Source of the DNA: a virus
Taxonomy: Duplodnaviria > Caudoviricetes
Direction: 5' to 3' (one strand)
IMG/VR virus record: IMGVR_UViG_3300025713_000650
Span: 32,001-96,000 of that record
DNA: 64,000 nucleotides
The notes under the pieces were generated by a model, which searched no databases, had not been told where the DNA came from, and saw nothing but the letters and a program-made list of their open reading frames with translations. Below, one piece after another: positions 20,129 to 51,731 of this stretch (within the stretch, counting starts at the first letter, position 1; each line of letters opens with the position of its first letter). The translations under genes were made by a program, and so were the position numbers.

Positions 20129-21442
20129 CTAAGCGTAAGCGAAAGTGGAGGATGAATCGGTTATCCAATTGTTGTTTCTACACGCCAATCGAATTTTTTC
20201 TGTGCTAATTTGCTTATATTTAGATGTTGTTTGTAAATAATTACCTTGTATATCTTGCACATATACCCAATTACCAGTGAATCCCGATATAAAACCAATC
20301 TTATTTATTTCTGGTATATACACTTTATCCCACAAGCACCACTTCTTTTCTTTTACAATTATTTCTTTTGTATTTTTGCTATTTCTTTTTGCTTTCCTAT
20401 TAGGTTCTTTTCTACCTTTACGCGGTATTTCTTCATGTAAACTACGTTTCTTTTTACGTACCTGCTTTATATAATATATATTATCGCTATACTTCATTGG
20501 TTTTATATTTGCAATTACTACTGCATCGTTTATATGCGACTTTTCTATATTCCACTCTTTACGTTTTCTGCGTGTGTATAGTCCAAAAGTATATTGCGTT
20601 GGTGTTATTTCTTGTAGTTTAGGTACAAGATAATCTTTTAGTACATTCATAAATGCCGTTTCCTGAAATTGCTTTATCTTAGGTAGATTTTTACCTGTAA
20701 ATTCTTTGTATTCCATGTTGTCTTTTGCTTTATTATGCGCTTCACAACTACATACTAAATTGCTTGGATTATTGCTACCACCCTTGCTTCTTGGTATAAT
20801 ATGGTCTACTTCAAGAATATCATTGCAAGGTATGTCTGGTCTTAATTTTGCATAATGACAAGTAAAATTATCTCTTATTTTTACATATTCTTTTACGCTA
20901 TCATATCCATACATTTCTCCCTGTTGATATTCTATACCATTAATATCTGGATTAACTAATGCCTGTGTATCAAATTGCCCTATTTCTACTCTTATTCTGC
21001 TTATTGGTAGAATTTTTACAATATCATTTACAAGTCTTATATGAGCATTAATCCTTGATTGTATACTTGGCGGTAACCATCCTTTTTTTCTTTTTCTATT
21101 TAAGAACCTTGCTTTTCTATACCTTGTTTTTCTATTACGTCTTGCATGTCGAAGTCGTCTCCTTGTATGAATATTCTCTTTTATGTCTTGTCTTAATTCT
21201 GCTTCGGCACGATAAAGCACATTACCTTGTTCCGTTGTAACTGCCACACCTATATGTTTGCTTCCTGCGTCAATACCTAATACACATTCTTGTATTTGAT
21301 TTTCACACTCAAATAATAATTGAATTGTAAATGGTTCATATTTTACTATTTTAGCCTTCTTGTTTTTCAGCAATTTTCTTGCCTTAGCAGGCTTGCAAGG
21401 CATTAAAGGCTTACCTTCTATTGAAACTACATATACTAACAT
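20129..21442 (-). CDS. iscB: RNA-guided endonuclease IscB
   Basis: PLMP domain, RuvC-I GIDAG, RRxRR bridge helix, RuvC-II E, HNH (DHIIP..GG.N..NL...C..HN), RuvC-III SHINDA. Confidence 0.95.
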   Translation of the reverse strand: MLVYVVSIEGKPLMPCKPAKARKLLKNKKAKIVKYEPFTIQLLFECENQIQECVLGIDAGSKHIGVAVTTEQGNVLYRAEAELRQDIKENIHTRRRLRHARRNRKTRYRKARFLNRKRKKGWLPPSIQSRINAHIRLVNDIVKILPISRIRVEIGQFDTQALVNPDINGIEYQQGEMYGYDSVKEYVKIRDNFTCHYAKLRPDIPCNDILEVDHIIPRSKGGSNNPSNLVCSCEAHNKAKDNMEYKEFTGKNLPKIKQFQETAFMNVLKDYLVPKLQEITPTQYTFGLYTRRKRKEWNIEKSHINDAVVIANIKPMKYSDNIYYIKQVRKKKRSLHEEIPRKGRKEPNRKAKRNSKNTKEIIVKEKKWCLWDKVYIPEINKIGFISGFTGNWVYVQDIQGNYLQTTSKYKQISTEKIRLACRNNNWITDSSSTFAYA

Positions 21443-22993: not shown

Positions 22994-23563
22994 TTATTCT
23001 TCATATCCAGAGAACATTCTATCCTCTGTAATATTATATTCTTTTTTTAATAAATCCAAAATTGTTTCTTTTGTCAACCCCAATAATGGAGCTTCAATTT
23101 TAATTTGAGATGTACAAACTAAAGAAAACAATTCATTTATTTTAACAACATACTCTTGATAACAATCTGGAAATAAATTAATTCTATCTGAATAATCAGC
23201 ACCAAACCAAATCAATGGAATTTTATTTGTTTCAGCATATGCAGATGCAATCGTTAGAAAAAAAGTATTTCTCATTGGAACATAAAATTCATTTACTTTT
23301 TCATATAAATTATTTTCAAAATGTCCGGTTAATGCACTATTTGTTAATGCTGAATAAGTTTGAAAATTTGTATAAAGAATATGTGCATTTTCTTCATTTG
23401 CATATTTTTTAGCAAATTCTAATTCTTTAATATGTTTTTGACCGTAATCAATAAATAAAAGAATTGATTTATAACCTAAACTTTTACTTAATTGATGTAA
23501 AAGAATACTATCAGCACCACCACTAAATAATATTATAATATTATATTTTGATTCTTCTTCCAT
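22994..23563 (-). CDS. queC: QueC-like PP-loop ATPase (7-cyano-7-deazaguanine synthase family), lacking the C-terminal zinc site
   Basis: SGGADS, DYGQKH..EL, SALT, YVPMRN, FPDC, APL..LTK. Confidence 0.85.
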   Translation of the reverse strand: MEEESKYNIIILFSGGADSILLHQLSKSLGYKSILLFIDYGQKHIKELEFAKKYANEENAHILYTNFQTYSALTNSALTGHFENNLYEKVNEFYVPMRNTFFLTIASAYAETNKIPLIWFGADYSDRINLFPDCYQEYVVKINELFSLVCTSQIKIEAPLLGLTKETILDLLKKEYNITEDRMFSGYEE

Positions 23564-23604: not shown

Positions 23605-23640
23605 AAAAATGGAGGAGGTATTATTTCTAATACCTCCTCC
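23605..23640 (-). terminator. terminator closing the ubiquitin-like operon
   Basis: 13-bp stem GGAGGAGGTATTA/TAATACCTCCTCC followed by U-tract. Confidence 0.75.
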
Positions 23641-23679: not shown

Positions 23680-24132
23680 TTATCCTTTGCTACCAGAAGG
23701 CATTATGAACTCAAGATTGTCATACTGTCCGAGAATATAATCCTCAGAAACCTCACGACCATTCACAATTGCCTTTGAAGAAGGAGCAATGTTGAGAACT
23801 TCTGTAAAGAATGCTGCAACTTCACATACCTTCTTACCCACAACGGGATAGTTACCAGAACTAGCACCACTCGAAACTGTAATCATTGCTTCATTGTAAC
23901 CAGCATCATTCTTAGAATGGAAGGTTGTATTCAGATTGGTGATCTTTGAATCATTCGCGGGTTTTACCTCTTCTTTGAGATTTGATTGTGCTTGATCCTT
24001 CTGTGCTTTGATAATTGCAGAAATCATGTTATCCTTAACTTCCTTGACCTTGAATGAGATTCCAAAAGATTGTGCAATTACTCTGAGTTCAGCCTTCGTC
24101 ATTTCTTCCAATTCACGAACTGTGTAATTCAT
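23680..24132 (-). CDS. ubiquitin-like (beta-grasp) protein with N-terminal Rho_N/HeH domain, C-terminus SGSKG
   Basis: LEEMTKAELRVIAQSFGI...K..MISAII; C-terminal AIVNG.EV..DYIL...D.LEF..PSGSKG; AGGAGG before ATG 24132. Confidence 0.8.
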   Translation of the reverse strand: MNYTVRELEEMTKAELRVIAQSFGISFKVKEVKDNMISAIIKAQKDQAQSNLKEEVKPANDSKITNLNTTFHSKNDAGYNEAMITVSSGASSGNYPVVGKKVCEVAAFFTEVLNIAPSSKAIVNGREVSEDYILGQYDNLEFIMPSGSKG

Positions 24133-24154
24133 ACTTCCTCCTTGCTTCATTTTT

Positions 24155-24862
24155 TTAGTTTTCTTTAGGATGACGTACTTTTGAATCTGCTTTCATTTTT
24201 AAAATATCAAAATATATCTCACTAATTTCTATTGTATCGTTTTTATCATGATAATAAAATGGCCACATCATTAAATTTGCAACCGTTGAATTTGTAAATA
24301 ATAACTGTGGTTCATGTACAGATAATTCTTCACAAGACATTTCATGAGGACTTTTATCTTCTGGATTTTCGATTTCTGGATGATAATCTGTAAGAGAAGG
24401 TGTAATATCTATTCCATTTTTTCTGAAATAAATTTGAACGTTTCCGTCAATATATTCATTACCACCAGAAATTAATAATATATTATCTAATGTCTTACAA
24501 TAATCAGACACTATTTTACGAGTTTTATGATTATCTACACACATAAAAATCACATTAATATTTTTAAGAACAGAATTAATATTTGATTTATTAATATATG
24601 CTTGGCAAAAGTTAAAATCTATAATATTAAATTTTCTAGATAATTCTTTAAATTTTTCTTCTGCTTTACCACCAAATGATTGAAATTCTTGACGATCTAG
24701 ATTGTGAGATTCATATTCATCACCATCTATTAATAAAATAGAACTTTTACATGTCTTTGTAAAATTTAAAAATCTACATAAAATATTAATTAAATTTGTT
24801 CCTATACCACCTAAACCAATTACTGCAATTTTATAGTTTTTCAATAATATCCCCCTTTCCAT
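24155..24862 (-). CDS. E1-like ThiF-family activating enzyme
   Basis: IAVIGLGGIG, LIDGD..E..NLDRQ.F, KA, CVDN..TR, SGGN, SC catalytic-Cys region. Confidence 0.92.
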   Translation of the reverse strand: MERGILLKNYKIAVIGLGGIGTNLINILCRFLNFTKTCKSSILLIDGDEYESHNLDRQEFQSFGGKAEEKFKELSRKFNIIDFNFCQAYINKSNINSVLKNINVIFMCVDNHKTRKIVSDYCKTLDNILLISGGNEYIDGNVQIYFRKNGIDITPSLTDYHPEIENPEDKSPHEMSCEELSVHEPQLLFTNSTVANLMMWPFYYHDKNDTIEISEIYFDILKMKADSKVRHPKEN

Positions 24863-25898
24863 ATTTTTTTTGAATATAGTTTCTCAACGCCAATGATTTA
24901 AAATACGAACATTTTGTAATACAAATACCTTTATATTTACAATCTTTGCATATATGATCTTCTAAATAAGTTTTTTCAGAATCTTCAATTGAATTATAAA
25001 CTTGCATAAATGATTTACCGTTTAATTCTTCACTTTCAATTTTTGAAAGATATTTTTCACGAATTGAATTAATCATTAAATTATTTTTATTTTTTGATTC
25101 TATAATATTTTCATTCTTTGTTATCACTTTTTTATTTTCTGAATAATTTTCTGAAATATCACCCATATATCCATATCCATAAAATGGAAAAACATCATCA
25201 TAAAACCCATAACCATAGAATTGTTCACAATCTTTACTATTTATCATTTCATTGTAATTTATCATATCTAACCAATAAATAGGAAACTTTTTTGGAGCAA
25301 TAAAGAATTTTTTATTTGCTTTTGCTTTTATATTAATATATTCTGATGGGTTCTTTTTAATTCTATGACCATTACAAACAACAGAACAAACAACTTCATG
25401 ATAATAGTCATCATTTAACTTACCTACTGTTATATGAAGTCCATCCATTGTTTTTTCATCACTAATATCTACACCTGAATGAAATGCTCCAAAATCAGAA
25501 TGACTATGAATTGTTCCAACTAATAATTTATCTGTAAATGAGATATTTCTTTCATATTTTATACTTGCTCTTGTAACTTCTTGTTCAGGTACATGAATAT
25601 AATATTCTCTTGTTTGACGATCCAAATATAACATAACAACTGATTCTGTTTTATATTTTTCAAATACTGTTTTAAGAAATGATACAATTTTTGAAAATAA
25701 TGAATAACTTATTTTTGGTAAATCCAAATTGATATACGGTTTCTTATTTTCTAAAAATGAAATTTTATCAACTGGAACTAATGCATCAATTAAACCTACT
25801 TTTTTTCTTAATAATATTCCTTTTTTTGTTATGATATAATAAATATCATCATTGGGTAAAGGTTGTTTTTTATCATATAGAGCTATGACTTTAAACAT
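24831..25898 (-). CDS. JAB/MPN+ metalloprotease (deubiquitinase-like) with C-terminal Cys cluster
   Basis: E...Q.V...S, GTIHSH..F.AFHS..D..DE. Confidence 0.9.
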   Translation of the reverse strand: MFKVIALYDKKQPLPNDDIYYIITKKGILLRKKVGLIDALVPVDKISFLENKKPYINLDLPKISYSLFSKIVSFLKTVFEKYKTESVVMLYLDRQTREYYIHVPEQEVTRASIKYERNISFTDKLLVGTIHSHSDFGAFHSGVDISDEKTMDGLHITVGKLNDDYYHEVVCSVVCNGHRIKKNPSEYINIKAKANKKFFIAPKKFPIYWLDMINYNEMINSKDCEQFYGYGFYDDVFPFYGYGYMGDISENYSENKKVITKNENIIESKNKNNLMINSIREKYLSKIESEELNGKSFMQVYNSIEDSEKTYLEDHICKDCKYKGICITKCSYFKSLALRNYIQKKYGKGDIIEKL

Positions 25899-28363
25899 TC
25901 CATTATTCTCCTTTCTTGATAGAATAATAATTTATTAGGGTTATTAACAAATATATTTCTAAAATCTGGTAAAACATTTGTAACCTTTACTAAATCATTA
26001 GTCATAAATCTAGGATTTGGTAAAGTTGCATATCTAAAGTATTTTTTTAGATTATCATAATATGGTCCATATAGATATTTACCATCTAAACTCGAACTAT
26101 AATAACAATTGTAACCAGTTACGAAACAAACAACTTTCATAGATTGAAGGTTAGATGTATTTACATAATCACCAAATTGAAAATTTAAATTTGGTTTCTT
26201 TATAACTTTTTTATTATATTTTTTATCATCTGGATATAAAACATCAAAATATTCGGGAATATCCATTAGATAAACTGTCTGACCATTTGTTAAAAGAGCC
26301 ATCTGTAAAATACAATCTGTTATGACGCAATGAATTTCATAACAATTATATTTTGAGAACGGTAATTCTAATGATCTTTTATCTGATTTTAATGTTATCC
26401 TTGTTCCTTTAGGATATTTTTCATGGTTATATGTAATCTTTCTTAATCTTATATCAAAAGGTACTTTAGTATTTTCTAAGTTAAATAAAGAAATAGGAAA
26501 CGATCTTTTATCTTCATCTTCCATTTCTTGTTCAATATTAACATATATAATCATTTGATCTAAATTAATATCAAAATTCTTAATAGTTTGTTTTCCTGGA
26601 ATTTCATTGTTTATCATATATAAAATATCATCATTAACTGACAATTCATAATTTCCATTATTGGAAGGTATTGTTAATTTAGTAAAATCTTCATTAAAAA
26701 GACAATCTTTTATTTTATCCATTATTTCTAAATTATAATTTTCATCATCTGGTGTTAAATAAATTTTATCTTTTGAATAATCGTAATACATCTTATTATA
26801 TAAATTACCACAAATATGATTTCCAATTAGCATAAATTTATTTTTAAACATTTCTCCATTAATATTTAGTTTTTCAGTAAAACAAAAAGACTTATTTTCT
26901 TTATTCATATATAAACATTTTTCTTCATTGTTTACTATATTTTTTAAAAACAAATAAATGTCATTGTCTTCAAAATTTATATTTGTAATTTCATAAGCAT
27001 CTTTATGATATAAATATATATTATTATCAATTATATCTATTAAATAAATTTGTTTTCCGATTTTTAATTCTATATCATTACTTGTTTTTATATAATTTGT
27101 TATTTCCCATTCTTCTAAAAAACTATCAACTATGATATATGAATTTTTATCATTAGTTTCTATCGTTATTAAATTATCTGTTTTATTAATTTTTATTTTA
27201 TGAATTTTCTTAATTATATTTTTTAATTCTTTATGAATAATAAAACTATTTACTTTTATTTCAATATTTTCATCACCATTTTTTATTGTTATTTTATCAA
27301 CTTCTTCAATATTCATAATAAAATTATAATCTGCTTCTTTATCATTTCCATCTTCATCGGTAATAAGTAATTTACAATTATTAATTGCTTTTTTGATAAT
27401 ATATTTTTTATTATCAACTTCAATTATATCATTTTCTCTCTTAACTATTATATTGTTTGGATTTTCTATATCTCTTATTAAAATTTCACATGGTAATTTA
27501 TTGTTTAAAAATGAATTTATATTATATGAGTCTTGATGACTTAAATTACGTGTTAAATTAAACATAGAATTTTGTATTAAACTACTTAAACTTGCATAGG
27601 GAATAAAATTTTCCTTTAATATAAACACTGGATCATTTTTAGAATAATAATCCCAAGAAAAAATATCTGTTTTTGAATCTTTTTTCTTTGCCATCTGTAA
27701 ATATGAATCTTCCAAATCATTATTAAATGTTGATGTCCAGAAATTAGCAATAAGCTTTTCGATAACATTAATATCAATATCTTCAACTTCAAAATCTTTT
27801 TTATAACCTGTACATACCATTAAATTAGTTCCGATATTGGGTAATGTAGAATGATATATAATATCATTTAAAGTATTTAATGGAGATTTTCTGAATCCAT
27901 AATAAGTTCTTATATGTTGTATATATTTATCATAATGTTTATTATAACTAATTATAAAATAAAAAATTGAATATGGAAAGAATAGTCTCAAACTACCGTT
28001 AAATCTCATATTTTCAATTTTATCTGTCCAGTCAAAATTTTCAAATAATGGATTTTTATTTAATTTTCGATATTCTGTATTAATTTCTTTTTTAAAATTT
28101 ATTGTTCTATATTGAGGTTCCTCTTCAATAACAAATAAAAGTGTATTTAGATATGGATGTTTGTATACAAATCTACAATTTTTTGGAAGAACAAACATAT
28201 GAGGTATATCATTATCATCGTCTATAATATTTTCTATTTGAAAATATGGAAGTTTATTCATTATTAATTCATTATTTTTATCTAAAGATTTTCTATTAAA
28301 ATCAGGATAATGAAAATTTACAAAAAATTTTTTTTTATTACCGAACATTATATAATTAGCCAT
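25883..28363 (-). CDS. prokaryotic E2-like (family D-type) conjugating enzyme with ~550-aa C-terminal extension
   Basis: FPY.IF, P...L.D..Y...LPNI....VCTG, FW.S.FN.D. Confidence 0.75.
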   Translation of the reverse strand: MANYIMFGNKKKFFVNFHYPDFNRKSLDKNNELIMNKLPYFQIENIIDDDNDIPHMFVLPKNCRFVYKHPYLNTLLFVIEEEPQYRTINFKKEINTEYRKLNKNPLFENFDWTDKIENMRFNGSLRLFFPYSIFYFIISYNKHYDKYIQHIRTYYGFRKSPLNTLNDIIYHSTLPNIGTNLMVCTGYKKDFEVEDIDINVIEKLIANFWTSTFNNDLEDSYLQMAKKKDSKTDIFSWDYYSKNDPVFILKENFIPYASLSSLIQNSMFNLTRNLSHQDSYNINSFLNNKLPCEILIRDIENPNNIIVKRENDIIEVDNKKYIIKKAINNCKLLITDEDGNDKEADYNFIMNIEEVDKITIKNGDENIEIKVNSFIIHKELKNIIKKIHKIKINKTDNLITIETNDKNSYIIVDSFLEEWEITNYIKTSNDIELKIGKQIYLIDIIDNNIYLYHKDAYEITNINFEDNDIYLFLKNIVNNEEKCLYMNKENKSFCFTEKLNINGEMFKNKFMLIGNHICGNLYNKMYYDYSKDKIYLTPDDENYNLEIMDKIKDCLFNEDFTKLTIPSNNGNYELSVNDDILYMINNEIPGKQTIKNFDINLDQMIIYVNIEQEMEDEDKRSFPISLFNLENTKVPFDIRLRKITYNHEKYPKGTRITLKSDKRSLELPFSKYNCYEIHCVITDCILQMALLTNGQTVYLMDIPEYFDVLYPDDKKYNKKVIKKPNLNFQFGDYVNTSNLQSMKVVCFVTGYNCYYSSSLDGKYLYGPYYDNLKKYFRYATLPNPRFMTNDLVKVTNVLPDFRNIFVNNPNKLLFYQERRIMECLKS

Positions 28364-28400: not shown

Positions 28401-28487
28401 TGGTAGGAGTAGAGGGAATTGAACCCTCACGAGGTAATCCTCACGAGATTTTAAGTCTCGCGTGTCTACCAATTCCACCATACTCCC
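28401..28487 (-). tRNA. tRNA-Leu(UAA)
   Basis: Long variable arm, loop CU-UAA-AA, ACCA end. Confidence 0.95.
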
Positions 28488-28721: not shown

Positions 28722-29453
28722 TTAAATTTCTTCGATAACAGTTTCTTGTTTCGGCCAAAATGATGCTATAAAAATTCCATCACATTCAACTTCATTTTTA
28801 ACTGAATTTTGTGTGATGGACAAAATTCCAGTATGCTCTAATAACAATAAACGTCGACCATTTTCATTAAAATCACAATGAACCTTAATGGAATTTTTTG
28901 ATTTGACCTTTACATTATTATCAAAAGAAATAGATGAAACCAATAATGGTTTGAAACATTTCTTGGTTTTATTGTTGCTAATGATGATAAAATGAACTAG
29001 TCTAAGTTCATTTGTCAGAACAAGGGAATCCAGTTTATAAAACATATGTTTTCCCTTTGAATAAACGCTTGAACCGCTTGTTACTCTTACCTTGGGTATT
29101 TGGTATGACAAACTCAAGATATTCTTCAGATCCAATGAAGGAATCTGAAGATCCTCGATATCAGGATACGACATTTCCTTTGCCGTTTTTCCCATTTGTG
29201 ACTCAAAATGAGTCATAATTGGGACTAATTTTTCCTGAACGTCATTGATGATTTTTTCATCTAAAGGTCCTTCATACCGAGGAATGAAAAAAGGTTCATT
29301 TCTCCGAACATAGATTGTTACGTTCGGAAGGGTGGATGGTACAATCCGATAGGTTTTCTCTAACTTGTCAGTGAAAAATTTCTTGGGTATCTTGAAAGTC
29401 TGATCATGGTACACAAACACAAAACAATTTGTATCATTAACAATTTTTAACAT
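28722..29453 (-). CDS. hypothetical protein (early-type cassette, higher GC)
   Basis: 243-aa ORF behind the 52-bp promoter-RBS cassette. Confidence 0.75.
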   Translation of the reverse strand: MLKIVNDTNCFVFVYHDQTFKIPKKFFTDKLEKTYRIVPSTLPNVTIYVRRNEPFFIPRYEGPLDEKIINDVQEKLVPIMTHFESQMGKTAKEMSYPDIEDLQIPSLDLKNILSLSYQIPKVRVTSGSSVYSKGKHMFYKLDSLVLTNELRLVHFIIISNNKTKKCFKPLLVSSISFDNNVKVKSKNSIKVHCDFNENGRRLLLLEHTGILSITQNSVKNEVECDGIFIASFWPKQETVIEEI

Positions 29454-44030: not shown

Positions 44031-47000
44031 TTAAATATTTGTTTTCCTACCTAATAACATATTATCTAAGATACCAGAATATAAACCTTCATTAGATATA
44101 CCCCGTAAAAGATTCTTTTTCTGATTTGAAAATCCAAATCCCAATAACCATGATTCTTTACTTGGAATTGTTAAAATGCTAATAAATTCTGGAGAATAAT
44201 TGTTTCTATCTTTTAATAATCTCCATTTTTTATTACCATACCACATTAATTGAGAAACTACTGATTCAAAATGAACATAATGTATTTCTTTTGAATAATT
44301 ATAAATTTTAAATAATTTTTCAATCAATTCTTCACAATTTAAATCTTTATTTGAATGTAATAATTTAGATACAGATGATAAATCGCTAATAATATCTTCT
44401 TGTAACATATCCTCGCTACCCTTTTTAGTAATAGCTGCTCCCGAGTTATGTATAAATATTCCTGCCTTCAATGCAAAATTAGGATACTCTGAATCAACAG
44501 TTAAATCATAAAATTCTTCATATTCTGGTAAATCTATAAATTGTATATTTTTAACAAATCTATTATTTTTAATAAAATATCTGAATGACATTCGTTCAAT
44601 AAATTTTCCATTTTTGTTTTCTAATTTTGATTTATTTTTTCTATAGATTGGCATTAATTGATCATTAACTTGTAAATCTTTTGCTTCTTTGGAAGTTCCA
44701 TCTTGCATAATAAATTTATGATCTAATGTGCATTCAACTATTTCATCATTATCTAAAGTAACCTTAACCATTCTCTTTTCAAATCTATCTTTATAAGCAT
44801 TCACAATCTTGCTAATATATATGTCTCCTTCTGGAGAACAATTAAATGTATAAAAATCTTCACCATTTTTAACTTTGTCATAAACTTCTTGAATTTCAAA
44901 TGATTTATTATTAATATCTAAAATTCTTGTATTTTTTCTTAAACTCAAATGAAATGTGCGCAAAACTAACTGTGTAGATGCTTCACCTAAACTTTGAGCT
45001 GCAATCATTCCTATAAATGGTGAATGTAATATTTTATGTAAATCACCATAACACCTTTTACAAACCTTTTCACTTTTACAAAAAATAGGACTTCTAATTT
45101 TAATATTTTTACCAATTATATTCTTTAAATTATCATTTGTAATTAATTCTTCATTATCTCCATTTAAATAAAATTTATATAAAAGACATTTTGCCTTTTT
45201 CTCATCTTCAACGAATACATTTAGATAATCTTCAGTCCCACAATCATCAAGATTTGAATCTAATATTAAATTACAACATGCAAATGCAAGCTGTCTTGAT
45301 AAATAACCTGAATCTCCTGTATTTATTGCAACGTCTAAAAGACCTTTTCTGCAGCCATAACTTGAATTGAAAAATTCATATTGAGTTAAACCTTCAACTA
45401 AATTATTTTTAACTGGTGTTTCAATAATTTTTCCTGAAAAATTTGAGATAAATCCTCTTGATAATAATATCTGTCTTACCTGTTCCCATGTTCCTCTAGA
45501 ACCAGAATCTATGACATATGAATACATAAATTTATTTCTTAATTCATTTTCAATTTCTTTACTCGCTAATTCATTTAACTGTTCTCTAGAAGTATTTTTT
45601 GAATAGATTGTTTCTTTCAATTCATCAACATTATCAAGAATTAAACCATCTAAAGATAAAGTTGTTCCATATAATGTTGAATATTTATAACCTATCATTT
45701 TAATATCATCTAAAATCTTAGATGTAATTGTATAATCATATTTATCATTAATATCATTTAATAAATTAATAAGCTTCTTTTTATTAACAGGATCTTTTAT
45801 AATAGGATAATCTTCAGGTAAACATTCATTAAATATTTTTAAACTTTCTGTTATTTGTTCATTTTTATATTCAATCTGTTTATTTAATTCAGGAATCATA
45901 TTATTTGTTAAAATATAAACTCCTAAAATAATATCTTGAGAAGGAGTTGCTGATAGTGATATATTTGCAGGATTATATAAATTCTTAGTAAATAAGAATT
46001 TATCTAAAACTTCTTCTTTTGATTCTTTACTTATTGGTAAATATATTGCCATTTGATCTCCATCAAAATCTGCATTAAATCCCGCACATGCTAATGGATG
46101 AATTTTTATTACTTTATCAGTATTCATTTTAATCTTAAAACCTAATAAACTTAATCTGTGCAAAGAAGGTTGTCTATTTAATAAACAAACTTCATCCTTG
46201 ATTACTTCTTCACAAATAGAAATCAAATTTAATTTATCCATTTCAATACACTCATCTATATAATCAACAGCTTCATTTTGAAGTTTAAAGTGATTATAAT
46301 CTATTAATTTTTTTGAAATTTGTAATTTATATAATTCTAAAATCATTACATAAGGTAATGAACATTCGTCGATATCTATTACAGGATCAGGTGTAATTAT
46401 AGCTCTTCCTGAAAAATCTATCCTTTTACCTAATATATTTCCACGAATCAAACCCTCTTTTTTAGATAATTTATCCAAAATAAATTCATATAATGTATTA
46501 ACTAATTTTTGTAATTGTTTAAAATACATATAATATATTTCTTTTTTATTAAGAATATCTATATTTGTTTCTTCGATTGTTGCTTTATGATTTAAAAGGT
46601 GTGTATAATAACTATTTATTTCATCAGATTTCATTTGATCGTTTTTAGAACGAATTTTTGATGTTGGTCTTAAATCAGGAGGTAAAACTAAAACTTCATT
46701 GATCATTAAACTATCTATATGATCATTAATATATTTCCAATCAGGAATATCTATTAATTCTTCTGATAACCATGTTACTAATTTTATAATAGCCTCTGAT
46801 TTTTCATATTTTTTAAATTTTTCTGGAGGCCATTTTTCGTCATTTTCTTCAACTACAAAATGATTATTTTCTTCGTCAACATATAATGATGATTTTTCAT
46901 TTTTAATTAACAAATCTAATGGCTTTTTTATTTCACTTTTTCCTAATGAAACTAATAAATCATAAAAAATAGGATTTACAACAGGAATAGGTAAAATAAT

Positions 47001-47240
47001 TTTTGCAAATCTTTTTCTTCTTTCACGATTAGATGTAATATCAACATGACAAACAGGACATTTTTTATTTGAATTAGAAGGACCCCAATAAATTTCACAT
47101 TGACAAATATAATTTTTTAATGGACCAAAAATCTGTTCTGAAAAAAGACCATCTTTATGAAAATTTTTTTTATCTAAAATTTTTGATGTTTTAACTTCTT
47201 TAATTATCTTTATAAATTCCCTATTTATCAGTTTCGGCAT
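44031..47240 (-). CDS. phage multisubunit RNA polymerase, beta-prime-like subunit, intein-containing
   Basis: GLFSEQIFGP, PPDLRP, GKRIDFSGR, NRQPSLHR, NADFDGD catalytic loop, T..SGYL.R, AAQSLGE..TQL.LRTFH. Confidence 0.95.
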   Translation of the reverse strand: MPKLINREFIKIIKEVKTSKILDKKNFHKDGLFSEQIFGPLKNYICQCEIYWGPSNSNKKCPVCHVDITSNRERRKRFAKIILPIPVVNPIFYDLLVSLGKSEIKKPLDLLIKNEKSSLYVDEENNHFVVEENDEKWPPEKFKKYEKSEAIIKLVTWLSEELIDIPDWKYINDHIDSLMINEVLVLPPDLRPTSKIRSKNDQMKSDEINSYYTHLLNHKATIEETNIDILNKKEIYYMYFKQLQKLVNTLYEFILDKLSKKEGLIRGNILGKRIDFSGRAIITPDPVIDIDECSLPYVMILELYKLQISKKLIDYNHFKLQNEAVDYIDECIEMDKLNLISICEEVIKDEVCLLNRQPSLHRLSLLGFKIKMNTDKVIKIHPLACAGFNADFDGDQMAIYLPISKESKEEVLDKFLFTKNLYNPANISLSATPSQDIILGVYILTNNMIPELNKQIEYKNEQITESLKIFNECLPEDYPIIKDPVNKKKLINLLNDINDKYDYTITSKILDDIKMIGYKYSTLYGTTLSLDGLILDNVDELKETIYSKNTSREQLNELASKEIENELRNKFMYSYVIDSGSRGTWEQVRQILLSRGFISNFSGKIIETPVKNNLVEGLTQYEFFNSSYGCRKGLLDVAINTGDSGYLSRQLAFACCNLILDSNLDDCGTEDYLNVFVEDEKKAKCLLYKFYLNGDNEELITNDNLKNIIGKNIKIRSPIFCKSEKVCKRCYGDLHKILHSPFIGMIAAQSLGEASTQLVLRTFHLSLRKNTRILDINNKSFEIQEVYDKVKNGEDFYTFNCSPEGDIYISKIVNAYKDRFEKRMVKVTLDNDEIVECTLDHKFIMQDGTSKEAKDLQVNDQLMPIYRKNKSKLENKNGKFIERMSFRYFIKNNRFVKNIQFIDLPEYEEFYDLTVDSEYPNFALKAGIFIHNSGAAITKKGSEDMLQEDIISDLSSVSKLLHSNKDLNCEELIEKLFKIYNYSKEIHYVHFESVVSQLMWYGNKKWRLLKDRNNYSPEFISILTIPSKESWLLGFGFSNQKKNLLRGISNEGLYSGILDNMLLGRKTNI
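44445..44945 (-). mobile_element. mini-intein (167 aa, no homing endonuclease) in the RNAP trigger loop
   Basis: Starts SLRKNTRI, block B CTLDHKF, block F/G FYDLTV..YPNFAL..GIFIHN followed by Ser. Confidence 0.9.
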
Positions 47241-47304
47241 TCATATCTCCTATGTAAGATTTTTCTTATTATATCCTTAATAAAAAATAAAAACAATATT
47301 TTAT

Positions 47305-47336
47305 AAGGAGGAGGTATTATATAATACCTCCCCCTT
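47305..47336. terminator. hairpin related to 23611-23640
   Basis: GGAGGAGGTATTATATAATACCTCCCC. Confidence 0.5.
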
Positions 47337-47345
47337 TTCTTGACT

Positions 47346-47549
47346 TTAATATCTTAATGATTTTAATCTTTCAATTTCTTGATTCTTACCTTTTATTATA
47401 TTTTCTAGTCTTTTGATTTGTATATTTTTCAATCTTATTTTTTCTAATAAGACATTATCAATAATATAATTTTCATGTCTTAAACTTAGATCTTTTTTAT
47501 CTGAATTATCAATTAAACTTTCAATAATGATTTGCCTACATTTTATCAT
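47346..47549 (-). CDS. small coiled-coil hypothetical protein
   Basis: 67-aa ORF. Confidence 0.5.
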   Translation of the reverse strand: MIKCRQIIIESLIDNSDKKDLSLRHENYIIDNVLLEKIRLKNIQIKRLENIIKGKNQEIERLKSLRY

Positions 47550-47741
47550 TTAATCTTTAGGATTTATTTTTTCATGTTTCTCAATAATTTTAATTAATTC
47601 AGAATCTGTTAATTCACAAATATCTTTATTCAATCCTTTTACTAATTTAAGAAGATTAATAATAAAAACGGATAATATTCTTTGTGATAATGTGGTCCTA
47701 TACTTTTCTTCAAAAATGTTTTTGGATAAGAAATCACTCAA
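47550..47741 (-). CDS. hypothetical protein
   Basis: 63-aa ORF, GAGG RBS. Confidence 0.5.
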   Translation of the reverse strand: MSDFLSKNIFEEKYRTTLSQRILSVFIINLLKLVKGLNKDICELTDSELIKIIEKHEKINPKD

Positions 47742-47835
47742 AATAAATTCCTCGTGTTTTTATCTTATTTTAATAATATCAGGATGTTAATTAATAGTTT
47801 TTGTAAAGAACTTTTTTTAAAAAAATTATTAAAAT

Positions 47836-48141
47836 CTATTTTATTTCAATTTTATATTCAATGTTATCAATAATTGCTTTATATGCATTATTTGTTAAAA
47901 TTAATCTCCAACCATTATTTTCAATATCATAAACTCTTATTCGATCATTCTTAATATCTTTTATAATTCCTCTAATATTTAATTTTTTAGGATGCATTTC
48001 TTTTGGAATTCTTTTAAAATCTAAAATACAGTCCATTACTCTTTTACTTCCATCTTTCTTAATAAAAAATATAATACATTTTTTAGATCTTCTAATCATT
48101 CTAAATAATTTAAATGTAGTTTTAATCTTTTTATCTAGCAA
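47836..48141 (-). CDS. WYL_2/DUF2693-like SH3-fold protein
   Basis: F.KKDGSKR.M.C.LD...IP...VYDIE..GWR. Confidence 0.7.
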   Translation of the reverse strand: MLDKKIKTTFKLFRMIRRSKKCIIFFIKKDGSKRVMDCILDFKRIPKEMHPKKLNIRGIIKDIKNDRIRVYDIENNGWRLILTNNAYKAIIDNIEYKIEIK

Positions 48142-48168
48142 TACAAATCACCTCCCTTCTTTTTATTT

Positions 48169-48189
48169 TTCAATAATTAATATATATAG
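48169..48189 (-). promoter_or_regulatory. phage promoter motif copy 6 (upstream of the RNAP gene block)
   Basis: CTATATATATTAATTATTGAA. Confidence 0.65.
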
Positions 48190-48195
48190 AAAATA

Positions 48196-49212
48196 TCAAG
48201 AACGTTTTTCAGAATGTAATAAATCATCTAATTTTGAATCATCCCTAGATAAGAGATCCGAAAACAACATACAAGTCCAATTACATCCTTTACAATAATA
48301 TTTATAATCATTTTCAAAATTCATTTTATATAATTCAGATACATTATAATTTTCATCGAAAACATTTTCTATTGTATTATATGTCGGACAATATGAACCT
48401 TGTATTCTTAAACAACATCTAATCGAACCATCTGCATCAACTGTTAAATTATGAATATTTTTATTATCTTCATAACATTTTAAATTAGATGGTAATATAT
48501 CATAAATTTTATTATAAATCAAATCTTTCATATGAACATTTAAATTTTCATCTAAAATTCTTTTTAGAATTTCTTTTAATTCTTCTGTTGGATAAACTAA
48601 ATTTTCACTAGATTTAACATTTGAAAAATCATAATATTCTGATTTTGCAATATCAAGAAATGTAATACTACTTGATATATCATTATCTGTTAAAATTTTT
48701 ACTAAATTATATAAATTATTAATTGTATTTTTATCAACAGTTATTTCAGCAACTAAATCTTTTACATATTTTTTAAATTTTATTAAACCAAGTAAACCTT
48801 TATTACTTTTAATAGTAATATCATCTTTTTTATTAAGTAAAATATAAGGATCTACAGATGATGTTAAACCCTGAAGGTAACCAACATCATAAATAAGTTT
48901 TTCAATTCTTTTTTGAATTATATCTGTATTATTTGTAATTATAGTATAATTAATATCATTAAAATTACAATATCTAATAATTTCAGCTAAATCATTTCTT
49001 AACAAAGGTTCACCACCATACCATATTACAAAAGAATTTGGATTATGTTTTTTTAATTTTTCAAGAAATTTTATTACTCTTTCAGTATTTACTTCATTTT
49101 CATAAAAATGCTTCAAACGATTATTTGTATTTCTTGCAATTCCACAATAAGAACACCGAAGGTTACACCTTCTAGTTAAAAGAAAATTAACAATTTGAAT
49201 TGTATCTTTCAA
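48196..49212 (-). CDS. radical SAM protein with C-terminal SPASM/twitch-like cysteines
   Basis: CNLRCSYC, GGEPLL, C...VDADG..RCC, CKGCNWTC. Confidence 0.9.
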   Translation of the reverse strand: MKDTIQIVNFLLTRRCNLRCSYCGIARNTNNRLKHFYENEVNTERVIKFLEKLKKHNPNSFVIWYGGEPLLRNDLAEIIRYCNFNDINYTIITNNTDIIQKRIEKLIYDVGYLQGLTSSVDPYILLNKKDDITIKSNKGLLGLIKFKKYVKDLVAEITVDKNTINNLYNLVKILTDNDISSSITFLDIAKSEYYDFSNVKSSENLVYPTEELKEILKRILDENLNVHMKDLIYNKIYDILPSNLKCYEDNKNIHNLTVDADGSIRCCLRIQGSYCPTYNTIENVFDENYNVSELYKMNFENDYKYYCKGCNWTCMLFSDLLSRDDSKLDDLLHSEKRS

Positions 49213-49228
49213 ATTATTTCTCCTTTAT

Positions 49229-49507
49229 TTACATTAATTGAATTGAACTTGTCATTTTAACATATTCTTTATAAAGATCATCTGGTGGTATAAAAGGAAA
49301 AATTAATATTTTATTTTTATTTATTTTTATAATATCATCTTTTGGAGTCATAATAGGTGTTGGTGCTAATTGAAAATTTCCACCTTGAGTCATAACAGGA
49401 GTCATCAAAATAGGTTTGGAAAATTCTATAAATTCTTCACATTCTTTGGTTACTTCTCCAATAATGTAAGAAAATGGTGCTATGACAATAACTTTAATTT
49501 CTCTCAT
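49229..49507 (-). CDS. small Sm-like fold hypothetical protein
   Basis: IIGEV...P......P.....I....I.....P..L...Y....S.I pattern. Confidence 0.5.
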   Translation of the reverse strand: MREIKVIVIAPFSYIIGEVTKECEEFIEFSKPILMTPVMTQGGNFQLAPTPIMTPKDDIIKINKNKILIFPFIPPDDLYKEYVKMTSSIQLM

Positions 49508-49520
49508 TATATTCTCCTTT

Positions 49521-51731
49521 TTAATTTGGATTAACTGTTGTTAAAGATCCATCAGTTAGATCTAAAATTCTATCCGGATTAATTTGATTAATATGGGTAT
49601 GACTTATTAAATTAATACTTTTACTTTCTGCTAATTTATTTAATAATCTAGCAACATTTTCTGTATTTTCTTCATCTAATGAATCAAATATTTCATCAAA
49701 TATAAAAAGATTAAACTCAACATTATGCATTAAAACTTGAAGATCAGTTAATGTTAAAATAGTGCTAATATCAACAATTCTTCTTTGACCCTTTGACATT
49801 GTAGAATTGTGATTATTTTTAGTAACTGTATCTAAAAATCTAATAGAAATTTTATCTCTTATTTCTCCAGATTTTGTCTCACTTAATGTATCAAAACTTA
49901 CAATATATCTTCCATTAGAAATTAAATCTAAATAATCTAAAATTCGACTATTCATAAATGGAATTGCTTCATCAATTAACATACTTGGTATTCCTGAAGT
50001 TGAAAAACCCTGTTTCCAGAATCTTATAGCGTTTAATCTTTTCATACAAAATTTCTTATCTTCAGAAATTGTTTCTAATTCTTCTAATATTTCTAATATT
50101 TCATTTTTAATTTTATCAAATAAAGAATTATCAAATGTTTGTTCATTTATCAATTTTATCTGAAATTCATATTCTTTAATTTTATCATCAAAAGTCTTTA
50201 TTTCGTCAAATAATTTTAATAATTCTTCTGCTAGATTCTTTTCTTTACTTAATTCTATTTTTTTATTTTGTAAATCTGATTTAATTTGGTTAAATTTTTC
50301 TAAAACTTTTGAAAATTCAATTTTAGATTTATCATTAACTTCAGATATTTCTTCATTACATTTTTCAACTAAAGATTGTGATATTATTTTATGTTCTCTT
50401 CTAATTTTGTCTATTTTTCCTTCATAATTAGTTATATAATTATTATTTGTTAATTGTAACTGTGTTTTTTCTTTTTCAATTTCATTTAATTGATTATCTA
50501 AATTGATTAATTTTCTTTTAATTTCACCAATTATATTTTTATAATTATTAATTTCTAATTTTAATTCATTTTTGACAGTATCATTTAATTCTCTATGACA
50601 AACTGGGCATAATGAAACATCTAAATTTAATGAATTATTAATTTTATTTATTTCTTTTTCATTAGATTCAATATCTTTAAATAAATATGTTTTTTCAGTA
50701 TTAATTTGCATAATTTTTATATCTAAAACATTTATTTTCTCATTAAATTCATTAAGTTCTTTATTTACCTTTTCTTTTTCATTAGATATTAATTCTTCTA
50801 ATTCACTATCACCTTTTGAAGTTAAATCTTTATAATTATTTTTAATCTTTTCAACTTTTAATTCTCTTTCTGATAATATTCTACTTTTTTCAGAATTTAT
50901 TTTTTCATCTATATTATTTAACTCATTTTGGCAAACATTAATATCTGAATTAATAATATCCAATTTTCTATTTTCTAAAAATGTAGATCTTGAAATTTTA
51001 TATTGTGTTTCATGTTTTTTAATTTCTAATTCTTTGATTTGAGATTTAATATTATTAATTCTATCATTCTTATTATTATTAAAATTTATTTTATCATTTT
51101 CTAATTTTTTCAGGTATTCTTCTTTATCTTTAATTAATGATTGTTTTAATATAATAAGATTATCAATCTTATTTATATTTTCTAATTCTATTTTCTCTTT
51201 TTCATTACAATTTTTTAAATAATCCGTAAATTCATCCAAAGATAAAACTTTTCTAAATATTTCTTTCTTCTGAGTGTCAGGTAATTTTGTAAAGAAATCA
51301 TTTATATCCTGAGCGAAGAAAATACTATTTGTAAATAATTTATAAGGTAACACAATTGATTCTATTTTATTTTTAACTTCTGTTAACCCGGTAGCTTTAA
51401 TGGGACCTTCTAAAATAGCAGTTGTACCTTTATTTTTATAATTTCTATATCTACTTATATTATATTCATCAATATTTTCATCTTCAATAATATCAAAATA
51501 TAACTGTGTGAAACAATTTTTACCTATTTCAGTATTAATTATATCATCACCACCAACACCTTTTGAATTAACTCCATATAAACAATAACATATACATTCA
51601 AAAATTGAAGTTTTTCCTTTCCCATTTGGACCCGTTATTAAAGTAAGACCATCCACAATATCATATTCAAATAAATCAGTATAACCCATAAAATTTTGCA
51701 TTATAACTTTTTTGAATTTAATTTTTTTCAA
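49521..51731 (-). CDS. SbcC/Rad50-like ATPase (gp46-like)
   Basis: GPNGKGKTS, coiled coil with CPVC hook, S.GQ signature, FDEIFDSLD. Confidence 0.93.
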   Translation of the reverse strand: MKKIKFKKVIMQNFMGYTDLFEYDIVDGLTLITGPNGKGKTSIFECICYCLYGVNSKGVGGDDIINTEIGKNCFTQLYFDIIEDENIDEYNISRYRNYKNKGTTAILEGPIKATGLTEVKNKIESIVLPYKLFTNSIFFAQDINDFFTKLPDTQKKEIFRKVLSLDEFTDYLKNCNEKEKIELENINKIDNLIILKQSLIKDKEEYLKKLENDKINFNNNKNDRINNIKSQIKELEIKKHETQYKISRSTFLENRKLDIINSDINVCQNELNNIDEKINSEKSRILSERELKVEKIKNNYKDLTSKGDSELEELISNEKEKVNKELNEFNEKINVLDIKIMQINTEKTYLFKDIESNEKEINKINNSLNLDVSLCPVCHRELNDTVKNELKLEINNYKNIIGEIKRKLINLDNQLNEIEKEKTQLQLTNNNYITNYEGKIDKIRREHKIISQSLVEKCNEEISEVNDKSKIEFSKVLEKFNQIKSDLQNKKIELSKEKNLAEELLKLFDEIKTFDDKIKEYEFQIKLINEQTFDNSLFDKIKNEILEILEELETISEDKKFCMKRLNAIRFWKQGFSTSGIPSMLIDEAIPFMNSRILDYLDLISNGRYIVSFDTLSETKSGEIRDKISIRFLDTVTKNNHNSTMSKGQRRIVDISTILTLTDLQVLMHNVEFNLFIFDEIFDSLDEENTENVARLLNKLAESKSINLISHTHINQINPDRILDLTDGSLTTVNPN

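Follow-up and report, generated by a model that had tools for sequence, protein, structure and literature searches.

Can a phage encode a ubiquitin-like conjugation pathway of its own, and if so, what would it use the pathway for? The question is raised by four linked genes on the minus strand, at 23680-28363 of a 64,000-nt stretch of viral DNA (IMGVR_UViG_3300025713_000650, positions 32,001-96,000, one strand), which we call the window. An initial annotation had read them as genes for an E2-like protein, a JAB protease, an E1 and a ubiquitin-like modifier (Ubl), and open reading frames (ORFs) were found at exactly those coordinates. Profile searches and predicted folds support all four assignments, as do the invariance of the catalytic residues and the conserved gene order. 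Judging from homology, the four genes probably constitute a working, self-contained phage cassette for Ubl conjugation. The window itself is clearly part of a large phage: among its genes are those for a large terminase and a baseplate wedge protein, for two beta-like subunits of RNA polymerase and for 10 tRNAs. Genes for a helicase, for subunits of topoisomerase II and for a nuclease resembling SbcC are also present, and the G+C content is 24%.

The genes follow one another in the order E2, JAB, E1 and Ubl. The E2 and JAB genes share 16 nt and the JAB and E1 genes share 32 nt, in line with the overlaps claimed initially. Both claimed borders were also found. The upstream border, outside the system, is a tRNA-Leu(taa) gene (28401-28487, minus strand; ARAGORN). 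The same tRNA precedes the cassette in L019, a 136-kb contig of a metagenome-assembled genome (MAG) that shares the layout of the window. Just past the Ubl stop codon lies a hairpin resembling an intrinsic terminator (23611-23640, minus strand), with a 13-bp stem containing 6 G-C pairs and then a run of T; such hairpins were found at 2 sites in 5.9 kb, compared with 0.7 expected. Every motif quoted in the annotation was recovered by translation of the four ORFs.

The first gene (25883-28363) encodes a large protein of 826 amino acids, with an N-terminal E2/UBC-like domain (residues about 52-290; 27494-28210) and a long C-terminal tail. Its candidate active site is LPNIGTNLMVCTG (27806-27844), with Asn176 and Cys184 (Cys codon at 27812-27814). 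Cys184 was invariant in 56 diverse E2 sequences, and Leu174 and Asn176 were retained in at least 90%. The motif around the cysteine, (L)PN-x7-C, is spaced like the HPN...Cys site in canonical E2s, and the x7 distance from Asn to Cys was kept in 12 of the 14 phage E2 sequences. No His was among the invariant or near-invariant columns of the alignment. The motif FWTSTFN was also present in the translation.

The protein can be linked to the Pfam family Prok-E2_D (PF14460) transitively, because its homologues P0060 (27.3 bits), P0043 (26.7 bits) and P0134 (29.2 bits) exceed the cut-off of that family. An exhaustive search with residues 1-300 retrieved 558 cluster representatives at E up to 0.001. 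A UBC-like fold at the N-terminus, on which the initial proposal depended, was predicted by AlphaFold2 for residues 1-290 (predicted local distance difference test, pLDDT, 80; predicted template modelling score, pTM, 0.77). In the model, the Cys motif lies between a beta-sheet and a long helix (residues 198-210). When the model was aligned with known structures in a second look, the top 50 rows were all E2 enzymes (Z 4.7-5.5; 92-133 residues aligned). A wide search with an aligner independent of Foldseek gave mostly UBC, RWD and UEV chains, including the bacterial CdnG-E2, BubCD and Cap2 (Z 4-6.7). Foldseek itself returned nothing at E <= 0.001, and its best matches were E2s at E 0.07. A profile of the E2 gave nothing meaningful against the sequences of solved structures, and tblastn with the 826-residue protein gave no match. 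Taken together, these lines are consistent with a UBC/E2-like fold in the modelled residues, about 52-290.

The tail (residues 291-826; 25886-27493) was conserved only within the phage clade. It matched no Pfam or PHROG family and nothing in the ESM Atlas, and a word-based homologue search returned only two close relatives. Comparison of seven slices of the tail by hhalign found no internal repeats (best probability 11%); the suggestion that it is built of repeated small beta-barrels thus had no support at the sequence level. Within the cassette, the E2 and its tail evolve fastest: identity to the L019 protein is 49%, compared with 84% for the E1. We propose that the tail is a built-in part for binding substrates or partners.

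The second gene (24831-25898) encodes a JAB/JAMM metalloprotease of 355 amino acids, composed of an N-terminal domain and a Cys-rich C-terminal part. Its zinc site, HSHSDFGAFHSGVD (HxH-x7-S-xx-D), is at 25467-25508, with Glu85 encoded at 25644-25646. The residues E85, H131, H133, S141 and D144 were all invariant in 14 sequences, and a C317-x2-C320 pair was almost invariant. Among solved structures, the profile of the JAB family matched RPN11/PSMD14 (E 0.006).

The third gene (24155-24862) encodes a ThiF/MoeB-type E1 of 235 amino acids, which matched Pfam ThiF (PF00899) well above the cut-off (6.1e-18, 65.3 bits; cut-off 28.1). It consists of a single adenylation domain and lacks a rhodanese or UFD domain. 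The motifs GLGGIG, NLDRQ, DNHKTR and EMSCEEL were read from the translation, and GLGGxG, R57-Q58, D110-N111...R115 and C177 (in EMSCEEL) were invariant in 14 E1 sequences. By sequence, the nearest solved relatives were ThiF-type proteins, Uba4, UBA5, MoeB and ThiF, with BubCD at E 1.5e-4. A prediction of the complex of the E1 with the Ubl beta-grasp domain and the E2 domain gave scores of 0.02, 0.32 and 0.02, which speak neither for nor against binding.

The last gene (23680-24150) encodes the modifier. An AAGGAGG ribosome-binding site precedes an ATG at 24132, and this is more likely to be the start than the beginning of the ORF, which would give a protein of 150 amino acids. The protein is composed of a helical head and a beta-grasp domain. 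The head (residues 1-53; 23974-24132) resembles Rho_N and helix-extension-helix (HeH) domains: it scored 22.6 bits against Pfam Rho_N (1.1e-4), for which the cut-off is 24.9, and the homologue P0002 carries PF07498. Its three helices were modelled at pLDDT 86-91, and the linker that follows (residues 53-79) fell below 50, as in disordered regions. A beta-grasp fold, also expected from the initial annotation, was predicted for the C-terminal domain (residues 84-150; 23683-23883). Residues 84-147 were modelled at pLDDT 85-93 in the order beta-beta-alpha-beta-beta, and Foldseek aligned the domain with ubiquitin, NEDD8, SUMO, Urm1 and MoaD over 70-75 residues (template modelling score by target, 0.6-0.69; root-mean-square deviation, 2.1-2.5 A).

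The C-terminus of the modifier was read correctly as free of a propeptide: it ends in PSGSKG followed by the stop codon. G147, K149 and G150 were invariant in the phage clade, and the ending LEF..[AS]G.KG is a hallmark of the cassette family. One extra Cys follows the Gly in 6 of the 14 viral modifiers. Among the relatives on MAG contigs, the Gly is the last residue in 25 modifiers, and in at least 16 it is followed by 1 to more than 10 unconserved residues.

The Ubl gene was indeed richer than its neighbours in codons ending in C or G. The G+C content at its third codon positions (GC3) was 0.34, the highest of the 53 ORFs of the window (median, 0.107). Contigs from RNA libraries of two studies matched the Ubl gene and the E1/Ubl junction with 0-1 mismatches, which might also reflect carry-over of DNA. 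Most of the cassette was without cover in two RNA runs, which are uninformative on its expression. GC3 and the RNA-library matches give only hints of high expression of the Ubl.

How is the cassette distributed? A DNA search with it against 50,697 phage records gave no match, and the nearest virus record (G001), a fragment of 17.9 kb, does not contain the cassette. A protein search with the E1 retrieved 14 IMG/VR viral contigs of up to 269 kb, with 50-57% identity in E1. The order E2-JAB-E1-Ubl was kept in all 14, one of them (L008) being cut within the cassette region. Full-length E2 homologues of 819-877 amino acids head the cassette in 13 of these contigs, and the 14th, L008, ends before the E2. 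Homologues of the Ubl, bearing the HeH head, stand after the E1 in 14 of 14. The same four genes in the same order were found also in most of 80 loci on MAG contigs (see below); the arrangement is therefore not a matter of chance.

In 12 of the 14 viral contigs, the cassette is flanked on one side by SbcC-like, radical-SAM and small ORFs and on the other by two genes, one encoding a second ThiF-like protein and one a beta subunit of RNA polymerase. In the window, the SbcC-like gene, the radical-SAM gene (48196-49212), the small ORF (47836-48141) and the RNA polymerase beta gene are adjacent to one another at 44031-50021 with no cassette between them, and the cassette is 20 kb away from this usual site. 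Because the usual neighbours lie together without it, we conclude that these four genes, and only these, moved together as one unit. L019 shares this layout, with identities of 84% for E1, 69% for JAB, 67% for Ubl and 49% for E2; most neighbouring genes were 69-82% identical and orf163 was 44% identical. The second ThiF-like gene, of about 290 amino acids, was found in L005-L018 about 1-2 kb past the Ubl (for example, L013:10065-10952) and has a conserved C-terminus, ...ETGAA or ...ETGSA. It is followed there by a conserved ORF of 110-125 amino acids. Neither gene is present in the window.

Although the cassette was rightly described as phage-encoded, it is not peculiar to phages, as cellular-looking contigs carry it too. 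When species-representative genomes were scanned, 138 relatives of the E1 turned up on MAG contigs, and 80 of the loci were kept. Most of these loci encode E2-JAB-E1-Ubl or Ubl-E2-JAB-E1, mostly with short E2s (about 220-370 amino acids) and short modifiers, and many were binned to Methylomirabilota, Patescibacteria, Planctomycetota and Verrucomicrobiota. Some cassettes in the candidate phylum NC10 (Methylomirabilota) and in Paceibacterota lie amid housekeeping genes: for example, genes for MreC, PBP2 and H+-pyrophosphatase in a 957-kb contig, and for DnaK in an NC10 genome. A quick tree of the E1s was built with a midpoint root and with support from the Shimodaira-Hasegawa-like approximate likelihood-ratio test only. 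All its rows with a long E2 and an HeH-bearing Ubl except L023 formed one clade with 98% support. All of the viral contigs belong to this clade, together with four that had been binned as bacterial or archaeal. L020, L022 and others carry this phage-type cassette and were binned as Thermoplasmatales, Heimdallarchaeota or Hyphomicrobiales; these are probably phage contigs in the wrong bins.

Some loci of the wider family depart from the four-gene plan. In L055 (32-6130), L024 and L076, two to four tandem E2-domain paralogues are upstream of a single JAB-E1-Ubl set, a hint that one E1 might serve several specificities. No E2 gene was found in L041 (4088-6061), an NC10 locus, and the gene immediately before its JAB-E1-Ubl set encodes an AAA+ ATPase. 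In L081 (3311-5077), a deltaproteobacterial locus, an AAA+ ATPase gene is just upstream of an ORF that matched both the E2 and the Ubl profiles. These neighbours may point to a link with protein unfolding or degradation.

Three cultured Bacillus jumbo phages, vB_BceM_WH1, Edson and vB_BauM_KLEB27-3, carry an E2 (241-270 amino acids), a JAB and an E1 of the family. Three genes upstream of the E2, they have a gene made of tandem units of 57 amino acids, each ending in AG[TV]KG, which we call poly-Ubl: 5 units in WH1 (L099:4789-5688), 5 units in Edson (L101:1671-2570) and 4 units in KLEB27-3 (L100:5431-6138, minus strand). Among the 50,697 phage records, this gene was found in exactly three, and these are the ones whose jumbo-phage genomes also contain the E1. 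When a unit was aligned with the Ubl, only the last 19 columns aligned (probability 15%), and the homology of the whole unit to the Ubl rests on context. No stretch of the poly-Ubl protein had an individually significant match to PHROG, and the long-E2 profile (E2L) did not match the proteins of 510-560 amino acids that precede the E2 in these phages. In WH1, the poly-Ubl gene was annotated by its depositors as 'virion structural protein'; the basis of the label was not found.

Polyubiquitin needs cleavage after the terminal Gly of each unit, and by analogy the poly-Ubl protein would need the same. This bears on the protease, which the initial annotation had taken for a deconjugase. This is probably not its only role: because many relatives carry residues after the Gly and Bacillus phages have poly-Ubl genes, the JAB of this cassette family is likely to process precursors in addition to removing the tag.

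From these results a reaction path can be proposed. The ThiF-type E1, probably a homodimer, would adenylate the C-terminal Gly150 of the Ubl. The Ubl would pass as a thioester to Cys184 of the E2, possibly via Cys177 of the E1. The 540-residue tail of the E2 would replace an E3 and choose the target, and the Ubl would be attached to an amine of the target through an isopeptide bond. The JAB/JAMM protease would remove the tag and, in relatives with C-terminal extras or poly-Ubl, would also create the free Gly. Because the Ubl has an HeH/Rho_N-type head, tagging would covalently add a helical module to its target. Binding of nucleic acid is the usual function of such modules, which suggests that the mark may bring this capacity to the tagged protein.

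As for the target, we consider phage or host proteins dealt with in the course of infection more likely than a role in defence. Tentatively, the jumbo-phage clade could run the Ubl system as a core infection function. The E2 would be E3-independent with a built-in receptor, the HeH-Ubl would covalently tether selected phage or host proteins to DNA or to the inside of the virion, the JAB would mature the modifier and reverse the tagging, and the poly-Ubl tag of the Bacillus phages may enter virions. This scenario, taken in full, is rather doubtful.

Several points weigh against a working conjugation cassette. Support for conjugation consists of sequences and models. Two of the window proteins fell below the cut-offs of their Pfam families: the E2-like protein scored 15.9 bits against Prok-E2_D (cut-off 25), and the JAB scored 21.2 bits against Prok-JAB (PF14464; E 2.7e-4; cut-off 25). 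The E2-like protein has neither the His of canonical E2s nor the downstream His of bacterial E2s of the 6d and Cys-Glu-His-His (CEHH) types. The Z-scores of its model (4.7-6.7) are middling, in a range that can arise from common arrangements. Cys177 of the E1, although invariant, is only a candidate thioester cysteine. No fifth gene travels with the cassette, and the analysis revealed neither a target nor an E3 nor any other conserved partner. Finally, a ThiS/MoaD-like modifier with a ThiF-type E1 is also the layout of a sulfur carrier.

The likeliest alternative is defence borne by the phage, or superinfection exclusion. In this scheme, the cassette would tag structural proteins of phages competing within one cell and spoil their assembly. 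There is a precedent in Bil, a host system with the same four parts, which is reported to conjugate its Ubl to a phage tail protein (Hor et al., 10.1101/2023.09.04.556158). The patchy distribution of the cassettes over many phyla would suit such a role. So would the rapid divergence of the E2 and its tail, which is expected of a recognition module in an arms race, and the tandem E2 paralogues of some loci. However, the cassette has been kept across a deep jumbo-phage clade and has a fixed place among core genes in 12 contigs, which fits a core function better. PADLOC gave only weak matches for the E1, and the NC10 and Paceibacterota cassettes are amid housekeeping genes, outside defence islands. 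We consider defence unlikely.

A second alternative is counter-defence, a purpose proposed in the initial annotation. The JAB would strip the marks made by host Bil or CBASS Cap2, or the E1, E2 and Ubl would disable host defence or other host proteins. Ubl-based immunity does exist in hosts (Bil and CBASS), and the JAMM site of the phage protein is complete. Stripping would, however, need the JAB alone, yet the four genes stay together everywhere; cellular genomes carry the cassette as well; and no similarity to Cap3 or BilC was detected. We consider counter-defence improbable.

A carrier of sulfur, or another adenylation pathway without tagging, in which the Ubl would be thiocarboxylated like ThiS, MoaD or TtuB so as to thiolate tRNA, DNA or a cofactor and the JAB would only trim precursors, is very improbable: the modifier has the ThiS/MoaD-like pattern ...NG..V......GD.LEF and matches MoaD and Urm1 in structure, ThiF and MoeB are among the best NCBIfam matches of the E1, and the phage has 10 tRNAs and a PP-loop gene, QueC-like, after the cassette, but the E1 is without rhodanese, the cassette is not accompanied by a sulfurtransferase or desulfurase, there is an E2-like protein throughout the phage clade and its Cys is invariant, the modifier ends in G.KG rather than GG, and the QueC-like neighbour accompanies only the cassettes of the window and L019, not the 13 other complete viral loci.

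The preferred reading remains a conjugation cassette serving the infection. The QueC-like protein (189 amino acids; 22994-23563, minus strand; Pfam QueC 6e-34) is encoded right after the terminator. A functional tie with the cassette was rejected, as the terminator lies between them and the adjacency is limited to two loci. On the other side, between a virion structural gene and the cassette, is an ORF of 243 amino acids (28722-29453, minus strand) with no family match; it is 82% identical in L019, and its GC3 of 0.305 is the second-highest in the window. Farther away, an ORF at 20129-21442 (minus strand) has RRXRR (9e-67) and HNH domains, resembles IscB and adjoins thyX. The RNA polymerase beta-like ORF at 44031-47240 (minus strand) encodes 1069 amino acids, compared with about 900 in relatives. 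Its alignment breaks at 44450-44943, which suggests an insertion of about 165 residues, possibly an intein or an inserted domain.

If the assignments are right, a complete Ubl cascade is on the side of the virus, conserved through a deep clade of giant phages and with elaborations of its own, the E2 tail and the HeH-Ubl. To our knowledge, the bacterial Ubl-conjugation systems studied so far (CBASS Cap2/Cap3, Bil and Bub) are all owned by the host, and those with a known role are anti-phage. The family is large and unstudied, with its 558 E2 cluster representatives and 138 E1 relatives on MAG contigs, and it reaches Patescibacteria and NC10, so that its function matters beyond the phage of the window. 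The cultured Bacillus phages make the role of a phage 'ubiquitin' accessible to phage genetics and mass spectrometry.

Among the known systems, PRTRC is the closest, as the initial annotation had suggested. The resemblance is one of kinship and not of membership: the JAB and the E1 are nearest to PRTRC, but they score far under the NCBIfam cut-offs, and for the E2 and Ubl none of the PRTRC models gave a match. Among the models considered (TIGR03735-03742), PRTRC_A (TIGR03735) was the top NCBIfam match of the JAB, at E 8.4e-7 over positions 28-175 of 192, with 28.7 bits against a cut-off of 101.8. PRTRC_ThiF (TIGR03736) matched the E1 near full length at 6.5e-13, with 48.6 bits against a cut-off of 144.75; it ranked fifth among the NCBIfam matches, behind ThiF-type models that cover less of the E1. 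For PRTRC_B (E2) and PRTRC_C (Ubl), no match was found at E up to 1 in the window proteins or at E up to 0.001 in their relatives. The cellular relatives were also below the cut-offs, with 34-39 bits for PRTRC_A and 32-39 bits for PRTRC_ThiF.

Both PRTRC and the window cassette have separate genes for a Ubl, an E2-like protein, a JAB with an extra N-terminal domain and a short, single-domain E1, and in both the modifier has a conserved C-terminal Gly. They differ in that no ParB or alpha-helical partner gene was seen at the window cassette. The initial annotation had noted the lack of a ParB partner nearby, which holds for the nine flanking ORFs scanned. The phage clade moreover adds the E2 tail, of 540 amino acids, and the HeH head on the Ubl. 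In our reading, PRTRC is probably the type 6d operon of PMC1779556, in which the E2 has a conserved downstream His (PMC1779556) that is missing from the window family. In that work, Iyer et al. (2006) predicted bacterial E1/E2/JAB/Ubl operons and lambdoid tail-assembly Ubl-JAB pairs, and no complete phage cascade (PMC1779556). We read the window cassette as a sister family of PRTRC that is neither Bil, Bub nor CBASS, a placement drawn from sequence comparison.

Bil has the same four functions, and one subgroup of relatives has the Bil gene order Ubl-E2-JAB-E1. Type II Bil modifiers have residues past the conserved Gly, and in a solved complex the E1 and E2 are seen with the modifier (Chambers et al., PMC10557695). 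A variable extension after the Gly, implying trimming by the JAB, occurs in both families, as do some modifiers with variable N-terminal domains. In contrast, the Bil E1 has inactive and active adenylation domains and a Cys domain (PMC10557695), whereas the window E1 is a single ThiF domain of 235 amino acids. The CEHH signature of type II E2s is missing from the window family, no sequence match to Bil proteins was found, and Bil is a host defence whereas the window cassette is in phage genomes.

Bub and CBASS Cap2/Cap3 share the E1, E2 and JAB chemistry, acting on the C-terminus of a beta-grasp domain or of another protein, and the E2 model aligns to the structures of BubCD, Cap2 and CdnG-E2 (Z 4.7-4.9). 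Their proteins are, however, fused (E2-E1, JAB-E1 and Ubl-E2), while the four genes of the window are separate, and the window cassette has no counterpart of their BubE protease, CD-NTase or effector. In PADLOC, the 'E1-E2' matches were weak (best 2e-5) and limited to the Rossmann part of the E1, while the three remaining proteins had no match.

Two viral arrangements are also comparable. The tail assembly proteins I and K of lambda and T1 likewise include a phage beta-grasp protein with a C-terminal Gly that adjoins a JAB peptidase (PMC1779556). They have no E1 or E2 and so no activation, whereas the window has a full cascade and no NlpC/P60 domain. The Asgard 'Nidhogg' viruses have ThiF/E1-like genes proposed to act on ubiquitin-type pathways (10.1101/2021.07.29.454249). 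By their description, these viruses have only the E1-like genes, with the E2 and Ubl presumably those of the host, whereas the window virus encodes all four. We found no published description of a complete phage-encoded E1/E2/JAB/Ubl cassette in our incomplete coverage of the literature.

The window system differs from eukaryotic ubiquitin in its minimal E1, its JAMM protease, its G.KG rather than GG ending and its lack of an E3, and its modifier shares the fold of ubiquitin with no sequence similarity. The two are alike in the PN-x7-Cys stretch of the E2 and, in the Bacillus phage relatives, in head-to-tail poly-Ubl genes, which are a striking parallel to eukaryotic polyubiquitin.

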